Shown piece by piece: positions 42,584 through 51,591 of a stretch of 56,545 nucleotides of DNA. The stretch lies in contig NW_012236516.1 of assembly GCF_000787575.1 (NCBI RefSeq), positions 342,535 to 399,079 on the forward strand, written 5' to 3'. The notes under the pieces were generated by a model. It did no database searches. It was not told the DNA's origin and was given only the letters and a program-made list of their open reading frames with translations. This DNA is from Acytostelium subglobosum. Its lineage: Eukaryota. The position numbers and the translations under genes are program-made. Position 1 is the stretch's first letter, and the number at the start of each line of letters is the position of its first letter.

Positions 42584-45500
42584 ATGAAACTATTGGACAA
42601 TATACTTTGTTTCGTCGATGGCACTGGAGCATCATTCAAGGACAAGAAGGTCATCCAGGACCTCATCATAGCCAACGGTGGTAAATCAACTACTTTGTTG
42701 AACCAAAAGGTATGCATCACCAATGGTGGAACTATCCCATCATCACTCATTCATCAACTAACTCAACTGAATCAATCAATCAAACAAAGGTATCATACTA
42801 CATATGTTGTGCAAATGACTTGAACATGCTATCCAAGTCAAATGCATCACATGAACAGGAACAACCACAACAACAGGATGACAATGACAATGATGATGAA
42901 GATGAGGATGATGATGGTGGACAACAGGTGAGAGGTAGCATCTACTTGGACTCATTATCATACAATGTACGCAAGGCTATAAAGTTGAACATACCTATTA
43001 TGACACGCCAGTTCATCGACGACTCGGTCTCGGCTGGCTTCTTGCTCTCCACCGACCAGTACCAACTGGTGTCGCTATACAACATCAAGGAGCATCACTA
43101 CCAGTCCTACGACTTTGGCGCGCTGCTCGACGACGGCGCAAGCAGCAGCAAACAGACATCACTGGAGCAACGCAAGCGCGTGCCATACAAGCCGGCCGAG
43201 CCGGCCGCCGACGCGCCTCCATTCCCTGAGGATCGCTATCACATCGTCAAGTACAACGTGCTGCAGTGGACGCAGCAGAAGCGCTTCGTGTGTCTGGAGC
43301 TGCATGTGGGCGGCGGCGCCATGGGACTCATTCAGGTGGGCACTGACAGCGGAGCTCGCGAGGCTTCGTCTGGCGGCGACCAGGAGCAATCATTCTACCG
43401 TGTGTTCATCAATCATGGCTCAACAGACAACATCCCAGCGAGCACTCGCGAGTGGACTCCCGTGCCCAGCATTGAGGATGGACTCGTGTTGTACAATCAG
43501 CTCTTCCTGCAATACATGTCGCAGCCCTATCAGAAGTTCCTGATGACATCGATCAACATTGGCTCTGACCGCCTGCGTCAGCAGGCCACGTCGGTGGCCG
43601 CCACTCAGTCGTTGCTGCCCGACTCTGTACAGAAATTGGTCAAGCTGCTCTACGACGAGGCAATCACGACACTGGGCACCAAGCTGGGCGGCGCCCGCCA
43701 GGTCAACCTCACGCCCGAGGGCACGCTGCAGACCGGTGTGGGCACGATCGCTCTTCCCCAGCTCGAGAAGGCAGAGTTCAGTCTCTTCCAGATAGCCAAC
43801 GCAGTGCGCGGCGACCTCGCGCAGATATCCAGCGCCACAGTGGTCGGCCTGTTCAAGGAGTTCTTCAGTGCACTGCCCCAGGCGCGCCCCGCCGGCAACT
43901 TCACCCACAACATCGAGCTGCTTCAGGACATGCAGGACCTGGTGCAGCTGATGAAGGATATTCTTAACGTCGGTGAGTCGCTCGGACTCTCCTCGCAGAG
44001 CAACAACGTGACAGACACACGCTATCGCGCCATGCGCTGTGACATCCGGCCAATGGACACCACGACCAAGCAGTACAAGAAGCTCACCGATCAGATCATG
44101 TCGTCTGCCAAGCATCTGATGACCATCAAGAACATCTACCAAGTGACGCGTCGCGAAGAAGAGAACCATGTCTTCCCACATCAAAACGTCAAGACACTCT
44201 ACCATGGCAGTAGACCCAGCAACATCCTCGGTATCATGAGTCGTGGACTGCTCACACCCAAGTTGTCCACCACCCTAGGTGCATCCAGGCGTGATGTCGG
44301 TTACCTTGGATCAGGTATCTACTTTGGAACAAAGGCTGCAACAAGGTATGTTTGATTGATTGAGTGATTAAGTGAATGATTGAATGAGCACATACTGACC
44401 AACTACTCCTTAGCTTCCAATACTGTGATGGCCAAGCAACATCGACTTCAAGGTTCATGTTGGTGTGCCAGGTAGCACTTGGCGCAACAAAGAAGTATAC
44501 TTCGCATCAGAGTCATTTGGTCGAGCCACCAAAGGGCTTTAACAGTGTACAGGGTGTGGCCAAAGACAACAACAATGGCTCAGTGTTCACAGATGATGAG
44601 ATGGTCGTGTTCGATCCCAAGCAACAAGTGCTGCAATACCTGGTCGAGTTCCAGGCCATCGACAACAGCTTCAAGACTGCCAACAGCAACATCTCTTCGC
44701 TCAACATGCAGAGCAAACAGGATGCAGCTACATCATCATCAGTCATTGACACTGATGTCGTGCCAAGTGTCGTGCCAGCGTCCAACGCAAAGGATGAGAA
44801 AGAGGAGGTCAAGGAGTCGGGACTCATTGGTGGCGGCGTGGCCATCCCTCTTCAATCAGTGCACGTTCGCGCCAAGCTTCTGGATCTCGTTGGCGAGGTG
44901 GTACTCTACCAACACTACAAGAACGACTCGTCCAAGGCTATCGAGGCCAAGTACGTGTTCCCTCTGGATGAGATGGGCGCAGTCTGTGGCTTCGAAGCAT
45001 ACATAAATGGCAAGCACATCATTGGTGAGGTCAAGGAGAAGGAGCAAGCTCACCGCGAGTACAAACAGGCCATCTCCGAGGGCCATGGCGCCTACCTCAT
45101 GGACGAGGAGAAGCCCGACGTGTTCACTGTGAGCGTTGGCAACCTTCCGCCACAGGCTGAGGTGCTCATCAAGATCACCTACATCACCGAGCTCTCGATT
45201 GACGGCCTGGACATCAGCTTTGTGCTGCCATCCTCAATCTCACCCGCCCAGCGCAGTCTGAGTGCGGCCCAGGTCACCCAAACCACCACTTCTACCGTCA
45301 AGGTGGACAGCGACGCCACCTCCAAGCTTTCGATCCAAGTCGGCGTGGAGATGCCTTACAACATCGTCAAGTTGGTGTCGCCATCTCATGAGATTCGCTG
45401 CAAGAAGACACACACCAAGGCCACCGTGGAGCTGGCCAGCGGCGAGTCCAGCCTTGGAAAGAACTTCCAATTGTTGGTCGGTCTGGAGGACCCGTACAGC

Positions 45501-48500
45501 CCGAGAATGTGGGTCGAGGTCGACGGCACAGGTCATCACGCATCAATGTTGGCATTCTATCCCAAGTTGGACATTGACGCGGACCGCGACACCCCCACCA
45601 ACCTCACCTTCCTCGTTGATCTCTCGGCATCGATGCGTGGCGATCCCTTCCAGGACATGCTTCGTGCACTCCGTCTGGCAATCGCCAATCTCCGTGGACT
45701 AAATGTGCGCTTCAACATCGTGCAATTTGGTGACGTTTTCGACTGGCTGTTCGTGGACAACGTGGCACCAACCGAGGAGAACCTTCAACTGGCATGGAGC
45801 CACATCAATTCGCTCAACGCCAGCTATGGAGGCACTCAGCTGCAGCAGCCCCTCCAATCACTGCTGCTTCTGTCCGAACAGTGCAAGCCAAGCAACCCCA
45901 ACAACATCTTGTTGTTCACCGATGGCAACGTGTCGAATGAACGCATGATCCAGCAGTTGGTCAAGCGCGCGTCCGCACACTGTCGTGTCTTCTGTTTTGG
46001 AATTGGAGAGAACGTCAGTCGCCACTTTGTCAAGTCGATCGCGCGTCTCGGCGCCGGCTTTGCCGAGTTTGTCACACCAAACAAGCGACCCAACCCCAAG
46101 AAGGTGATCGCCCAGCTGCAGAGGACTGTGGCGCCAGCCATGTCCAACGTGCGCGTGGTCTTTGACTCGACCGACAAGATCGTCCAGTCACCCAACACCA
46201 TCACATCGATCTTCAAGAGCGAGCGCCAGGTCGTTTATGCATTCAGCGGCCTGTGTACACGTGCCACACTTTCTGCACAGGCTCCTGGTGGAGGCCTCAT
46301 CAGCAACACGGTGCACACTCCCGAGATCGGTTTCCTTCGCGGCAACCTCATTCACAGATTGGCCGCGCGCTCAATGATCCGCGAGTACAACGACGGCACA
46401 TATGCCGAGTCCAAGTTGCAGCACGACTTGATCAAGCTCAAGAAGAAGGAGGACGTCATCAAGCTCTCGATCCAATATAGCATCGTCACTCAGTTCACAT
46501 CATTCGTGGCAATCGAGAAGCGTGAGAAGAACGAGGTCGTACGAAAGGATATCCCGCCCCTACAGGAGATCGTCGACCAGTTCGTGGTGGACGCGCTGCC
46601 CTACATCCCCTACGAAGATCGCTCGAGTGGCGACGGCGTCGATGCCGGCGACTCCACCCTAGTGTCGAAGCGTGAGCAACTCTTGCGCACCATGGAGTCG
46701 TACAAGTCTGGCGGCAACCACGCCGACTCTGTGCGCGTGCTCCATCAGATCGCCGACACTTATGGCGATTATAACCGCGATGAATTGAGACTGTTGTCCG
46801 AGACGGTCAGCTCGCTGACCACAAAGAACCAGGACGTGGCCTTTGGCCAAGGCTCTTCGACACCATCCAAGACCATGACACCCCTGGCCCTATCAAGAGC
46901 CAAGCGCGAGAAACAAAAGGCCATGGATGAGATCAAATACAACTCACTCTCACTTCTGCGTCTGGTCGAGGCAAGCTTGCCCAAGTGCGCAACCGAGGAA
47001 CAAAAGGTGGCTATTCTAGACGAGCAGGCCAAGATCTACGCGACACTCGCTCGTTGCGAGTCCAACGACACTGCTAAGCAACATCTCCTCAGCCAGACCA
47101 AGGGCGCGCTCAAGGATGCCTTGGCAAGAGCCGAGAAGAGTCTTCCTCCCAACAGCCCAGTACGCTTGAAGCTTGCCTACAACGCAGCCCAGGCCTACAG
47201 AGACATGGGCGAGCACGACCTCGCGTCCAACCTGGCCAAGAACGCGTTTGACAATGCAATCTCAGAGTTGGACTGTCTCTCCGAGGACTCCTACACTGAG
47301 ACCACTCTCTGGATGCAGTTGATCAGGGACGACCTGACCTTGGCCTCTGAGCAAATGGATCTCCAGCAACAGTACAAGACACCCACCAAGGGCAAGGTCA
47401 CCGAGGTACACGCAGTCGATGACAAACCAGCCCAAGTGGTGGTCAATCGCTGGGCTGGACTAGGTGGTGTCTCGGTTGACAAGTTGATTGTGTCACCTGT
47501 TGCCAAGCCCCAGGAGAAGATCCTGGATGGTAGAAACTGGGCCGATATCTCCGACAGCAGCTCGGACGAGGATGATGGACATGATGCCACAGAGGTGTAT
47601 CTCGGTCGCCAAGAAAGCGACTCTGATAAGAGATCACGCGATAGAGACAGGGAGAGGAGCAGAGGCTACAGCGAGCGAGGTGGAGACAGAGACAGAGTGT
47701 CCACAGGTAGCCAAGGCCTCAAGAACATGGGAGGCAGAGGCGGAGGCGGAGGCAGAGGAGGTGCCGCTGCAAGTGGATTTGGCAGAGGAGGAAACAGATC
47801 AGTGTCCAACTCTGGCGAGAACGATAGGAGTGTCTTGCCTCAACAGGTGCGATACATGGATACCCGCGATGAAGATATGAAGAAGGTCGTCAGCGAAAAG
47901 AGCGCCGTACCACTAATGTCAGGAATGCGATACATGTCAAAGCGCGCTGATGAGATGGAGAGAGCCCCAGCCAAGATGCAAGAGATGGAGAAGCAGATGA
48001 ACGTACTAAAGTTAGAGAAGGAGCTTGAGTCGGCCAGGAAGTCACTTATGCCACTTAGGGCTCAGCAAGAGGTTGCCATGCCTCTTCCAGAGCCAATTGT
48101 CATGGCAAAGAGCCTGAACAGACTATCGTGGTCCTCCTCAGTCAGCACCTCATCTGAGGAGAGTATTGTCACACCCTATGAGGTCCAATCTTTGGACGAC
48201 TCCATCCGATCATCCCGAGGCGAAAAGGCCGATATGAAGGAGAAGAAGTCAGTTCGTGGCAAGAAGATGGCCAAGGACACTCAAGATAGTTGGGGCTCCG
48301 GTGACTCGGATATGTCGTTCTTCTCGAGTCCCCAATCACCACCTCCACCATCATCAGGAAGCTATGCACCGCCACCACCCCCACCCAGCGCCCCAGTCGC
48401 CCCTCCAAAGCCATCCTCCGCCCCAACACTCGCAGGCAAGATGGCTCCGCCACCACCATGGACTACGACCCAGACCGCTGCGCCACCCATGCCAGGAGCA

Positions 48501-50306
48501 CCTCGCCGCTCCGCGGCTGGACCACCACCCCCGGTTGCATTTGGTCAATCATCGAGCTTTGGTGCTCCACAACCACAGGCAGCCGCAGCACCGATGGCTT
48601 CGTTTGGCGCTCTCAAGAAGGTAGCGTCGCCACCAACCAATGCATTTGGATTTGATGGCACTAGTGGTGCAGGTGCCTCTCCCACCAACAGCTTGTTCTC
48701 TTCATTCTTTGGCGGTGCCCCTACGACGACCCCAACAATCGCTCCTACCACCGTATCCACGTCCACCTCAGCATCATTGTTTGGAAGCACCTCCTCTGGA
48801 AAATCATTCTCATTTGGAGGAATGCCACAACAACAGCAACAGCAGCAACAGCAACAGCAGACGTTTGGCTCCGCGGTGTTCAATGCTCCTCCACCACCTC
48901 CTCCTGCAGCCCACCAGGCACTCGAGAAGTTTGAGCGAGAGGCCACACCATTGTCCTCGTCATCTTCAAGCATGTCTTCCCTATTCAGCTTTGCAAAGGA
49001 GGGTTTGGCCAAGGTGTCCAACTCACTCCTGAGTAAGGGAGGCAAGGCTGCTGAAGCCCCCCTCAGCAAGACAAGCTCCAACAACAACAACAACAACAAC
49101 AACAACATTGTTGACAATGGATCAACCTTGAATGACAGCCTGGGTGAGCTGAAGGAGTACAGTAGAAGGAGGATGGCTAGGCCCGCTACTGTCACCCCTG
49201 TTGCCAAACCAGCACCACCTCCACCCAAGGAGGAACCCAAGCAAGACCTTCTCCAATCTTTACTCAGTCGCAGATCAGTAGTATATGAGGAAGATGAGGA
49301 AGAGGGTGAGGACTGGGGCGACAATGACGATGAGGACTGGGACGCACCAGCACAGAGTTACGACGACGGTATCGCCAACGAGATGGCCAGGTTCAAGAAG
49401 GAAATCAGCACCCAGAATGATGAATTGAATATGCTGTTGTGTGACCTTACACCTGCAGCTGCTGCGGCAGCCCCCATGGAGAGGGCACCATTAAAACTGG
49501 TAACCAGGAGCATCGAGCGAAGCGAAGAGGACATGGGATTCGATCTCTTTGGCGGCGATTATGACGCCCCCGCGCCAGTCATGGCCGCTGCAGCTCCCAA
49601 GCAACTGGCACCGGCCAAGGATTACTCTGCAAAGAAATCGTCATTTTCAGCCAAGATGGAAGAGAAGGAGGAATCTGATGGCGATGACATGGGATTCGGT
49701 TTATTTGACAGTGACGAGCGCATCATGACCGAGAGCGTGAAGGCCAAGCCAATGCCAGCCCCAAAGCCATCTCCCAAGCGACCAACATCATCATTGGTTC
49801 GCGGTGAGCTCATGCAAGAACTGAGAGCTCCAGAGGCCTCAGCAGGCGAGTCCGTTCGTTCTGCCTTTGCCTACAAGTGGTCAATTGATCAGAAGCCACC
49901 AGCAGACTCATCGGACGGAAAGAAGAAGAGCAAGCGCAAGTCCGTGAGCATGTCCAAAGAGTTGGCACCCGAGGCAAGCTACCCAGCAAAGCCAATCGTG
50001 GATGGCATCAGAAGCATACTTGGCGCGAGAAAGAGTTTCAATGCTGATGATGTTGCAGTGTTGGCATTGCTTGGTGTTCAAAGCGACTCGCACGTGGTCA
50101 ACTGCAAGAGCTTCATGAAGACAACATTGATTCTGGAGTTGGTACTCCTGTTCCTACGTCTGCTTCTACAGCCAGCCACAGACTCTGGTGAGTTGCTCAT
50201 TCTCTTGGAGAAATACAACTCGATCCGCCCCTCGATGAACAAGGCCAACCCTGCCTACCAATGTCTGCTCAGAGGATCAGCGAGCCATCTTATCAAGAAG
50301 CTCTAA
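42584..50306 (+). CDS. Vault poly(ADP-ribose) polymerase (PARP4/vPARP-like). Domain order is BRCT, PARP regulatory plus catalytic (H-Y-E), VIT, vWA, then a long low-complexity tail. 3 exons: 42584..42709, 42790..44345, 44414..50306.
   Basis: Exon 1 and the start of exon 2 form a BRCT-like domain (ILCFVDGTGASFKDKKVIQDLIIANGGKSTTLLNQK|VSYYICCANDL). The catalytic part reads TLYHGSRPSNILGIMSRGLL..YLGSGIYFGTKAATS|SFQYCDGQATSTSRFMLVCQVALG..PKGFNSVQGVAK..FTDDEMVVFDPKQQVLQYLVEF, the PARP signature with His-Gly-Ser, a Tyr and the catalytic Glu. VIT reads GGVAIPLQSVHVRAKLLDLVGEVVLYQHYKN..EAKYVFPLDEMGAVCGFEAYINGKHIIGEVKEKEQAHREYK. vWA reads LTFLVDLSASMRGDPFQDMLRALRLAI..FNIVQFGDVF. Introns are 80 and 68 nt with GTATGC/GTATGT donors. 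Confidence 0.85.
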
Positions 50307-50497: not shown

Positions 50498-51591
50498 CTA
50501 TGTTTCGTCGTTGGTTGTTGTTGGATTGATTGTGACAAGAGTAAAGTCCTCTGGCAATGTTTTGATTGTGACATAGTCCAATGCAGTTGGCAGTAAATTG
50601 ATGTTGAATGAATCCATTCTGAATCTGGTCCTCTGTGATTGAACAGTCTCTTTGGTCACTGGAGACACCGACTCGAATGTATGATACTGTCTCTTGAGGA
50701 ACACTCCATACTTGTACCAATCGGGCTCATCATCATAGTTGATGCCCTTTGTCAAAAGCATCTCCTTCATCTGACCCGAACCCTTGCCCTGAGTCATCTT
50801 GTGAGGAAAGTGAGCCTGCGCCAGTCCAGACACAGAGTTCCTCTTGCAATCGAATACGCTTCTCCAAATCAAGTTGTTCTAAAAGCATTGATAAATGATG
50901 TGAATGTCAATATGATTGATTGAATGATTGAGTTGATTGAGTGACTTACAAGAATCTCTTGATTGCTTGGCAACACAAAGATCCTGGCATCAAAGTGTGG
51001 AAGACTGGTGGTGACATGTTGGATGAGCTCAGCATCAGTGGCTGTATCATAGTGTTGTGCGGCCAGCGACTTGTAGAAAGAGGTGGACGCGGCACCAGCA
51101 GAGAGAGTGATCAACTTTTGAACTTTGCCGCTGAATGGCACGAGTGTCTTGCCCTGGGTGACCTTGATGCGCTCTTGATACTCCTCGTCAGAGAGTGCTG
51201 GGAAACACATTGTGATCTCATCACTGAATGAATAGATCAGTGATGGGTTGAACTCCTTCATGAGCACATTGGCAGCCTCGACCATTGCATTGTGCACACG
51301 GATGTCCCAGGGCTTAACAAACTTGCGTGTGAACTTGCTGAATCCATGGCCATCGAGTCTAATGACGAATGGCACATTGCCCTCAATGTGCAAAGTGTTC
51401 ATCGATGTCTCATACATCTTCATCCTGTCGCCCAAGTTCTCGCAACTTGACTTGTTCAGAGGTGTTGTTGTGTTTGTTGTCATTGTAGCTGTTGTTGCTG
51501 TAGCTGTAGCTGTAGCTGTATCTGTATCTGTTGTTGTTGCTGTATTGGTATCACTCATATTTGATATTAATATGTTTGATTGTTTATACAA
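50498..51591 (-). CDS. THG1: tRNA-His guanylyltransferase (Thg1 family), 2 exons: 51591 (or 51557)..50950, 50888..50498
   Basis: VPFVIRLDGHGFSKFTRKFVKPWDIRVHNAMVEAANVLMKEFNPSLIYSFSDEITMCF matches Thg1 VRIDGRNFHKF..KPND.RAL.LMN.CA..V..EF.DIVFAYGVSDEYSFVL. Later, LPHFDARIFVLPSNQEIL|NNLIWRSVFDCKR..KGINYDDEPDWYKYGVFLKRQ matches Thg1 LPSFDGRAV.YP..Q.IKDYLSWRQVDCHINNLYN..FGINYNNEPEMYRKGS. The intron is 61 nt with a GTAAGT donor and a TTTTAG acceptor. The choice of start Met (51591 or 51557) is uncertain. Confidence 0.8.

Follow-up and report, generated by a model that had tools for sequence, protein, structure and literature searches.

The C-terminal tail of the ribosomal stalk proteins is a disordered linear motif that serves as the main contact for eIF5B, eEF1A, eEF2, ABCE1 and Gcn2, and its CK2-phosphorylated serine is conserved in nearly all eukaryotes (PMC11624264). 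The tail is also the place where ricin, trichosanthin and Shiga toxins dock, with hydrophobic pockets that take up GFGLF(D) and basic residues that touch the acidic run (PMC5086656). In a different family, that of the PARP4-like (vPARP) ADP-ribosyltransferases, fusions with a 14-3-3 domain have been reported for proteins of amoebozoans, amphioxus, sea urchin and Capsaspora (Perina et al., 2014; PMC4245714). Here, a stretch of 56,545 nucleotides of the dictyostelid Acytostelium subglobosum is described (contig NW_012236516.1, positions 342,535 to 399,079 of the forward strand; the whole stretch is called the window, and all positions are counted within it), in which a PARP4-like gene encodes two tandem copies of a motif that resembles the tail of the stalk proteins P0, P1 and P2. 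Judged from its sequence, the protein belongs to a known enzyme family, and the papers searched do not describe the conserved imitation of a familiar linear motif that it carries.

Two copies of the stalk-tail motif

The two copies and the segment between them are encoded near the 3' end of the gene:

49518..49565, + strand: P-stalk-tail motif copy 1, RSEEDMGFDLFGGDYD, with the core MGFDLF at 49533-49550
49566..49658, + strand: Ala/Pro/Lys-rich hinge between the copies, APAPVMAAAAPKQLAPAKDYSAKKSSFSAKM, which aligns to the hinge of the Pfam family PF00428 (profile positions from 48)
49659..49718, + strand: P-stalk-tail motif copy 2, EEKEESDGDDMGFGLFDSDE, with the core MGFGLF at 49689-49706

Around the motifs, the open reading frame (ORF) is translated as ...APVMAAAAPKQLAPAKDYSAKKSSFSAKMEEKEESDGDDMGFGLFDSDE..., and the translation of 49401-49760 is ...RSIERSEEDMGFDLFGGDYDAPAPVMAAAAPKQLAPAKDYSAKKSSFSAKMEEKEESDGDDMGFGLFDSDERIMT... 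The initial annotation, made from the sequence alone, had pointed to a DDMGFGLFD in the vPARP tail and to a degenerate copy upstream of it. Both exist on the + strand, with small corrections: the codons of DDMGFGLFD occupy 49683-49709, one base away from the 49684-49710 originally given, and the upstream copy (RSEEDMGFDLFGGDYDAP, Met at 49533) lies 52 residues away and not about 55.

A conserved CK2-type serine ahead of acidic residues and of an MGFGLFD-type core is present in both copies. In copy 1, this serine stands four residues before the methionine (S-E-E-D-M-G-F-D-L-F-G), and in copy 2, which has one extra residue, it stands five residues before it (S-D-G-D-D-M-G-F-G-L-F-D). The similarity extends to the DNA, where the copies constitute a direct repeat of 32 nt with 78% identity and a spacing of 156 nt. 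A six-frame scan of the whole window for the core pattern returned these two matches only.

The motifs are internal: 198 residues separate the end of copy 2 from the stop codon, and copy 1 is 52 residues farther upstream. Both belong to a disordered linker, which is followed, about 95 residues beyond the motifs, by a C-terminal domain that is folded and helical. In an AlphaFold2 (AF2) model of the last 353 residues, the predicted local distance difference test (pLDDT) score is 36-43 across both copies, without secondary structure, and stays below 50 in the hinge.

One alignment pointed to a third, decayed copy at 49416-49451 (NDELNMLLCDLT). In a second alignment, the first copies of the orthologues instead faced the acidic-Trp segment described below, and the third copy is therefore not claimed.

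Similarity to the tail of P0, P1 and P2

The 120-aa segment with both copies matches the Pfam family Ribosomal_60s (PF00428) at 43.3 bits (E 5.5e-11) over profile positions 48-88, which comprise the hinge and the tail; the curated cut-off of the family is 28.1 bits, which the whole 1949-aa ORF, at 21.3 bits, does not reach. Copy 2 alone scores 29.1 bits (positions 49-88 of 88), and copy 1 alone 18.6 bits. Six full shuffles of the segment produced no match to PF00428 at any E up to 10. When the scrambling is restricted to the two hydrophobic cores, the segment retains 15.4 bits, and thus about two thirds of the signal come from the cores and about one third from the hinge and the acidic composition.

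A phmmer search with copy 2 against all PDB sequences returned 26 matches at E<=10, all of them P0, P1 or P2 and each with an alignment that ends at the C-terminus of the chain. In the reciprocal direction, a profile was built solely from 30 motif instances of PARP4 tails and searched against 1.84 billion representative proteins, which gave 477 matches at E<=1e-3, with P1/P2-type proteins at E ~1e-6 to 1e-4. The results of this search are taken from the best 150 of these 477 matches. They include 143 sequences that had not been in the starting set, of which 88 are short and P1/P2-like, with one motif, at the C-terminus.

The similarity to the P0/P1/P2 tail that the initial annotation had proposed, with hinge, acidic run and hydrophobic core, is therefore significant and reciprocal according to PF00428, the shuffles, the PDB matches and the PARP4-tail profile. 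At the sequence level, it amounts to significant mimicry of a host element that serves as the docking site of ribosome-inactivating proteins (RIPs). The likeness is confined to the tail: the N-terminal dimerisation and ribosome-anchoring domain of P1/P2 (profile positions 1 to ~47) is unmatched, and the N-terminal neighbours of the motif are PARP, VIT, vWA and 14-3-3 domains.

Distribution and conservation in PARP4 homologues

The motif was counted in the best 120 PARP4 homologues with the pattern acidic-[MLIV]GFxL[FL]-[D/E/G]. It is present in 26 of them, while composition-preserving shuffles give an expectation of 0.065 and a maximum of 1 in 200 rounds. All seven Amoebozoa sampled are carriers (five dictyostelids, Balamuthia and Acanthamoeba), and the metazoan carriers are sponges, amphioxus, many bivalves and gastropods, and a brittle star. 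Each protein has one to four copies, always within the disordered linker. Dictyostelium purpureum has four copies, two of them nearly identical, and Ephydatia has two identical ones; from their sequences, these are recent duplicates.

The consensus of 30 distinct instances from PARP4 tails is E-E-E-S-D-E-D-M-G-F-[G/D]-L-F-[G/D]-D-D-D, and a serine stands four residues before the methionine in 18 of the 30. Position +3 varies between G, D, S, N, A and C, with the D variant giving F-D-L-F-G, and looser variants such as DMGVFNLFG, DMGAGLFG and DMEFSLFD occur among the unconstrained profile matches. Endings in LFG followed by acidic residues occur in real stalks too, since a genuine P0 fragment returned by the profile search ends in ...IGFGLFGDD. 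The acidic segment DLFGSDDEE of eEF1B may be a further relative of the motif.

In a six-species alignment of the dictyostelid tails, the motif copies are the most conserved islands: the fraction of majority residues is 0.73 in copy 1 and 0.67 in copy 2, against 0.31-0.45 in the flanks and 0.46 in the folded C-terminal domain, and the hinge is poorly conserved (0.45). Conserved islands in unconserved flanks are the pattern expected for a functional short linear motif. The comparison with close relatives, which the initial annotation had named as a test, thus came out for the motif, as it is found in all five dictyostelid orthologues and far beyond. Its proposal of an exon capture did not hold as a lineage-specific event: the motif is old and recurrent in the PARP4 and VIT-vWA linkers of Amoebozoa, Metazoa and a chytrid, and a local capture is rejected because of this wide distribution.

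The host gene

The gene and its domains were mapped with the raw sequence, tblastn, Pfam and the orthologue of Cavenderia fasciculata:

42587-42721, + strand: further upstream piece of the gene, matching residues 23-67 of the orthologue (tblastn)
~42931..44345, + strand: upstream exon (Pfam matches, tblastn, sequence)
44346-44413, + strand: intron with GT..AG ends (raw sequence and mapping of the Cavenderia fasciculata orthologue)
44414..50306, + strand: large last exon, ending in the stop codon (ORF and mapping of the Cavenderia orthologue)
44457..50306, + strand: ORF of 1949 codons, uninterrupted and without internal stop
44850-45182, + strand: VIT domain (Pfam VIT, 126.4 bits, E 6.9e-37)
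45600-46070, + strand: vWA domain (Pfam VWA_3, 75.2 bits, E 7.9e-21)
46710..47342, + strand: nearly full-length 14-3-3 domain (Pfam, 75.8 bits, E 4.7e-21, profile positions 8-221 of 223)
49284..49349, + strand: two acidic-Trp motifs, EGEDWGDNDDEDWD
49995..50303, + strand: C-terminal helical domain (AF2, pLDDT 82.5 over the last ~100 residues)

The last exon is placed at 44414 because the GT..AG intron is seen both in the orthologue mapping and in the raw sequence; the splice acceptor reads ...ctccttag|c at 44413/44414. This exon encodes the C-terminal part of the PARP catalytic domain, the VIT, vWA and 14-3-3 domains, the disordered linker, both motifs and the helical C-terminal domain. The PARP regulatory and catalytic domains are both present and are split by the intron: PF00644 (PARP catalytic) scores 37.9 bits in the upstream exon, with the remainder of the domain in the large exon, and the match to PARP_reg is weak (17.3 bits). 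The H..Y..E catalytic residues (HGS, GIYF, DDEMVVF) can be read by eye from the sequence. Downstream of the catalytic domain, VIT and vWA form an ITIH-like body (44850..46070, + strand), which is followed by the 14-3-3 domain. BRCT was not detected by Pfam in the exons examined, and a match to I/LWEQ at residues 1164-1203 is weak and under its cut-off (26.5 bits).

Among its homologues, the protein is closest to the PARP4-like proteins from Cavenderia fasciculata (63% identity), Heterostelium album and Dictyostelium purpureum, and the named homologues of top rank are PARP4 proteins. With the PARP_reg, PARP catalytic, VIT and vWA domains, this sustains the label "vPARP" of the initial annotation at the level of the family. 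The motif stretch is in frame within one uninterrupted exon whose C-terminus is the same as that of annotated orthologues. An artefact of an intron or of the reading frame is rejected on account of the single 5.8-kb ORF, the end of which coincides with the orthologues. The GC content of the motif stretch equals that of the rest of the gene.

On the 3' side, the gene is bounded by a neighbour on the minus strand at 50498-51591 (ORF pieces 50869-51591 and 50498-50872). Its product, ...VIRLDGHGFSKFT..., is presumably Thg1-like (tRNA-His guanylyltransferase), as judged by eye.

The C-terminal domain

The C-terminal helical domain resembles the C-terminal domain of VIT-vWA proteins, and it is the positional equivalent of the domain of PARP4 that interacts with the major vault protein (MVP). 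Comparisons of the domain by Foldseek and hhalign gave nothing significant, and its similarity to the human MVP-interacting domain is weak. The C-termini of the Acanthamoeba and Balamuthia proteins match metazoan PARP4 C-termini in BLAST, which makes anchoring of the dictyostelid protein to the vault plausible.

Other modules of the linker

The linkers of PARP4 homologues (P0011, P0025, P0036, P0007, P0246 and others) contain, according to Pfam, fragments of other proteins strung like beads between the vWA region and the C-terminal domain. From actin only residues ~2-66 are found, from Hsp70 only the substrate-binding domain (382-520), and from synaptobrevin only the SNARE motif (5-60). Other modules are full ubiquitin, 14-3-3, calmodulin-like EF-hand pairs, Snf7 and WH2. 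Among 20 diverse full-length homologues (E<=1e-5), 14-3-3 and actin occur in 8 each, ubiquitin in 4, and EF-hand, Snf7 and synaptobrevin in 2 each. The PARP4 tail of Heterostelium album (P0002) has about seven heptads of the RNA polymerase II C-terminal domain, YSPTSPS, just upstream of the stalk-like motifs. Since other modules of the linker are clearly captured pieces of other genes, capture is the simplest origin for the stalk tail too, although this is unproven. A unifying explanation of the fragments was not found in the papers searched.

Heptads of the same sequence are also seen in the tail of P0004 in the tail alignment, and in P0095 PLYSPTSPTYSP directly follows the stalk-like motif.

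In Acytostelium, the acidic-Trp motifs, whose coding DNA is a 19-nt repeat, make up another conserved island, which the linker has shortly before the stalk-like motifs, and acidic-Trp motifs are also found in the other dictyostelid tails. They are preceded by a WH2-like LLxSLxxRR segment at 49245-49277 (+ strand), where the orthologues read SSLLxSIxxGxxLKK. Together, the two segments are reminiscent of a WH2 plus acidic (VCA-like) module for actin and Arp2/3. Farther upstream (47631-47801 and ~48600-48900, + strand), the linker includes an RD/RS-rich stretch, RSRDRDRERSRGYSERGGDRDR, as well as an RGG box, GGRGGGGGRGGAAASGFGRGGNRS. Other parts of it are a Pro-rich run (48336-48413) and a region like FG repeats (SFG, AFGFDG, SLFG, SFSFGG, TFG) that ends in polyglutamine.

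The motif outside PARP4

The long matches of the reciprocal profile search with an internal motif were scanned with Pfam and inspected directly. Among them are VIT-vWA proteins without a PARP domain, such as P0150, with three copies, and P0187 of the chytrid Blyttiomyces. The fragments P0149, P0154 and P0155 consist of an ITIH-like end, one or two motifs and a helical C-terminal domain, which is the same layout as that of the PARP4 tail. Pieces like the PARP4 tail are P0147, the end of a 14-3-3 domain with motifs, and P0246, an actin N-terminus with motifs. These carriers outside PARP4 indicate that the motif travels with the module of VIT-vWA and C-terminal domain.

Another group of carriers is a small clade of DTX3L-like RING-DTC proteins (P0203, P0162, P0291, P0292 and P0294), which have one or two motifs (SDDDLGFGLFDDD) in their disordered N-terminal region. 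The nearest named relatives of this clade are DTX3L-like proteins of bivalves, and 6 of 120 relatives have the motif. By their sequences, this looks like an independent acquisition by another enzyme family linked to ADP-ribosylation, so that at least one further family tied to ADP-ribosylation and ubiquitin has apparently gained the motif. Single cases are a RING protein with a capsid-protein-like domain, a fungal DUF4139/4140 protein and a CRIB-containing protein.

The protein P0188 (498 aa, from a 73-kb JGI contig) combines the C-terminal domain of minor capsid protein P11, the motif SDDDMGFSLFDDD and a C-terminal RING finger, and it may come from a giant-virus-like contig.

Possible functions of the motif

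Whatever their client, both copies are probably functional docking motifs of the stalk-tail type, to judge from their sequence and conservation. The reading that is best supported is that they form a docking handle for host clients on an ADP-ribosyltransferase scaffold, because the hydrophobic core, the acidic run and the CK2 site are all kept in the PARP4 motif; the serine has the offset that it has in stalk proteins. This proposal is tentative, and we give it slightly less than an even chance. Proteins that recognise the tail of P0/P1/P2 would bind the linker and would thereby be brought beside the PARP catalytic domain, where they might become substrates of ADP-ribosylation. If the C-terminal domain anchors to the vault as in human PARP4, the bound clients would be brought there as well. 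Tandem copies would add avidity, like the five tails of the ribosomal stalk. The default clients would be the endogenous binders of the stalk tail, namely eEF2, eEF1A, eIF5B, ABCE1 and GCN2, and these would couple the PARP4-like enzyme to translation or to ribosomes. Such a link is attractive because an oriented 80S ribosome is enclosed in about 8% of the vaults of Dictyostelium, and because PARPs and ribosomal proteins are enriched near vaults in proximity labelling (PMC13100048).

Several points weigh against this proposal. The whole biased ORF of 1949 aa scores only 21.3 bits against PF00428, under the cut-off, and the invariance of G, F, L and F in the set of 30 instances is partly imposed by the regular expression with which they were collected. 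The distribution in Metazoa is patchy: among the best 120 homologues, cnidarian, hemichordate, Capsaspora and sturgeon sequences are without the motif, the one sturgeon sequence being the whole sample of vertebrates. The motif is internal here, while stalk proteins have it at a free C-terminus, and some ligands may use the terminal carboxylate. In addition, the abundant eEF1A and eEF2 would saturate the handle, so that the purpose of recruiting them is unclear.

Bacterial toxins classically attack many of the proteins from which the linker fragments derive, or use them as activating cofactors. The motif could accordingly be an integrated bait, a mimic of the stalk tail that lures stalk-docking proteins of pathogens (Shiga-type or other RIPs, or effectors) onto the PARP4 linker, where a bound protein would undergo ADP-ribosylation, be locked away in the vault or trigger a defence pathway, and where the motif would be one bead among captured fragments of host targets. 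The linkers of homologues hold fragments and not whole copies of hub proteins, both the set of modules and their copy numbers change from lineage to lineage, and the DTX3L-like clade of E3 ligases has acquired the motif too. Furthermore, positive selection has been reported for the corresponding linker in the PARP4 of primates, together with the proposal that this linker contacts a viral factor (PMC10450202). TEP1, a component of the vault, is reportedly a TIR-like NADase (bioRxiv 10.64898/2026.05.01.722283), and soluble mimics of the P-stalk peptide inhibit ricin A chain (PMC6162817). However, stalk tails far outnumber any PARP4, and a stoichiometric decoy could not compete with them; since simple competitive protection is implausible given this excess, a bait would need an output by catalysis or signalling. 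A housekeeping client would account just as well for the deep conservation of the motif, and the 14-3-3, ubiquitin, WH2 and Hsp70 modules could equally be adaptors that bind cargo. A bait is fairly unlikely on this balance. Its wider form is unlikely as well, in which the linker would be an evolving array of captured pieces of hub proteins, each a bait for toxins or effectors, with recognition coupled to ADP-ribosylation at or in the vault; if true, PARP4 and the vault would be an innate immune sensor of the integrated-decoy type in amoebae and animals.

A generic acidic-hydrophobic motif, with a partner unrelated to the stalk and a resemblance that is convergent, would agree with the variability at position +3, including the F-D-L-F-G variant, and with the looser variants. 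Candidate partners would be the vWA or C-terminal domain of the same molecule, MVP, or clathrin- or adaptor-type pockets for DLF or FxxF. The motif tracks the module of VIT-vWA and C-terminal domain and not the PARP domain, AF2 modelling of Dictyostelium Vwa1 suggests that its C-terminal domain folds back on the vWA domain (PMC10539598), and other acidic motifs (acidic-Trp) adjoin. Nevertheless, the match is ~13-16 residues long, with the CK2 serine at the stalk offset, the best matches outside the family in two unbiased searches are stalk proteins exclusively, and G or S at +3 as well as LFG-plus-acidic endings also occur in real stalk-type sequences of the same search, all of which makes this explanation quite improbable. 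Chance resemblance, a neutral relic in a low-complexity tail or a functionless, recent and lineage-specific exon capture is the least probable of all and can nearly be dismissed: although the tail is biased in composition (rich in S, A, P and G), hinge and acidic run alone give 15.4 bits, and the whole protein stays under the Pfam cut-off, the shuffles score nothing, 26 of 120 homologues stand against 0.065 expected, the motifs are conserved islands inside an otherwise unconserved linker, they occur across Amoebozoa, Metazoa and a chytrid, and their GC content is that of the rest of the gene.

The function of PARP4 and the vault has been unclear for decades. A docking handle of the stalk-tail type predicts a short list of partners, that is eEF2, eEF1A, eIF5B, ABCE1, GCN2 and ribosome-inactivating toxins, and it connects with the ordered 80S ribosomes inside Dictyostelium vaults. 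It also touches the old question of an endogenous ADP-ribosyltransferase that acts on translation factors. The recurrence of the motif in PARP-less VIT-vWA proteins and in the DTX3L-like clade, together with the fragments of host proteins, suggests a general design principle of the protein family, which is absent from the papers searched.

Comparison with known systems

Automated Pfam annotation already flags PF00428 on several PARP4 homologues. In full-text searches, no paper was found that links PARP4 or vaults with a stalk motif, a decoy, a tripwire or a bait; for vaults or PARP4 together with RIPs, 12 of 1,513 hits were covered, and none of these 12 mentions both.

The closest counterpart of the motif is the tail of P0/P1/P2 itself (PF00428; EESEESDDDMGFGLFD). 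Both have an Ala/Pro hinge, an acidic run with a CK2-type serine and a core MGF[G]LF followed by D, both are intrinsically disordered, and both are present in several copies per assembly. In contrast to the stalk tail, the PARP4 motif is internal, with acidic residues after it, it is more variable at +3, and its carrier is an ADP-ribosyltransferase; the N-terminal dimerisation and ribosome-anchoring domain of stalk proteins is missing, so that the likeness covers profile positions 48-88 only.

Human PARP4 (vPARP) has the PARP domains, VIT-vWA, a long disordered linker and a helical C-terminal domain in the same order, and the motifs fall in the segment of the linker that is reported to evolve fast in primates (PMC10450202). 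Unlike human PARP4, the dictyostelid protein has a 14-3-3 domain after the ITIH-like body and no BRCT by Pfam in the exons examined. The amoebozoan PARP4-like proteins with 14-3-3 belong to the same gene family, and the closest homologues are named in the report on them, where additions of 14-3-3, actin and ubiquitin are described and the stalk-tail motif is not mentioned (Perina et al., 2014; PMC4245714). Cytosolic VIT-vWA proteins (VWA5A/BCSC-1, Dictyostelium Vwa1) share the ITIH-like body, a long disordered loop and the helical C-terminal domain (PMC10539598). They differ in having no PARP domain, and their unnamed and chytrid members have one to three P-like motifs in the loop. A functional analogy only exists with the integrated decoys of plant NLRs and the tripwire linkers of NLRP1 and CARD8: although the PARP4-like protein is without an NLR or STAND module, it shares with them an embedded piece of a host target and a rapidly varying linker.

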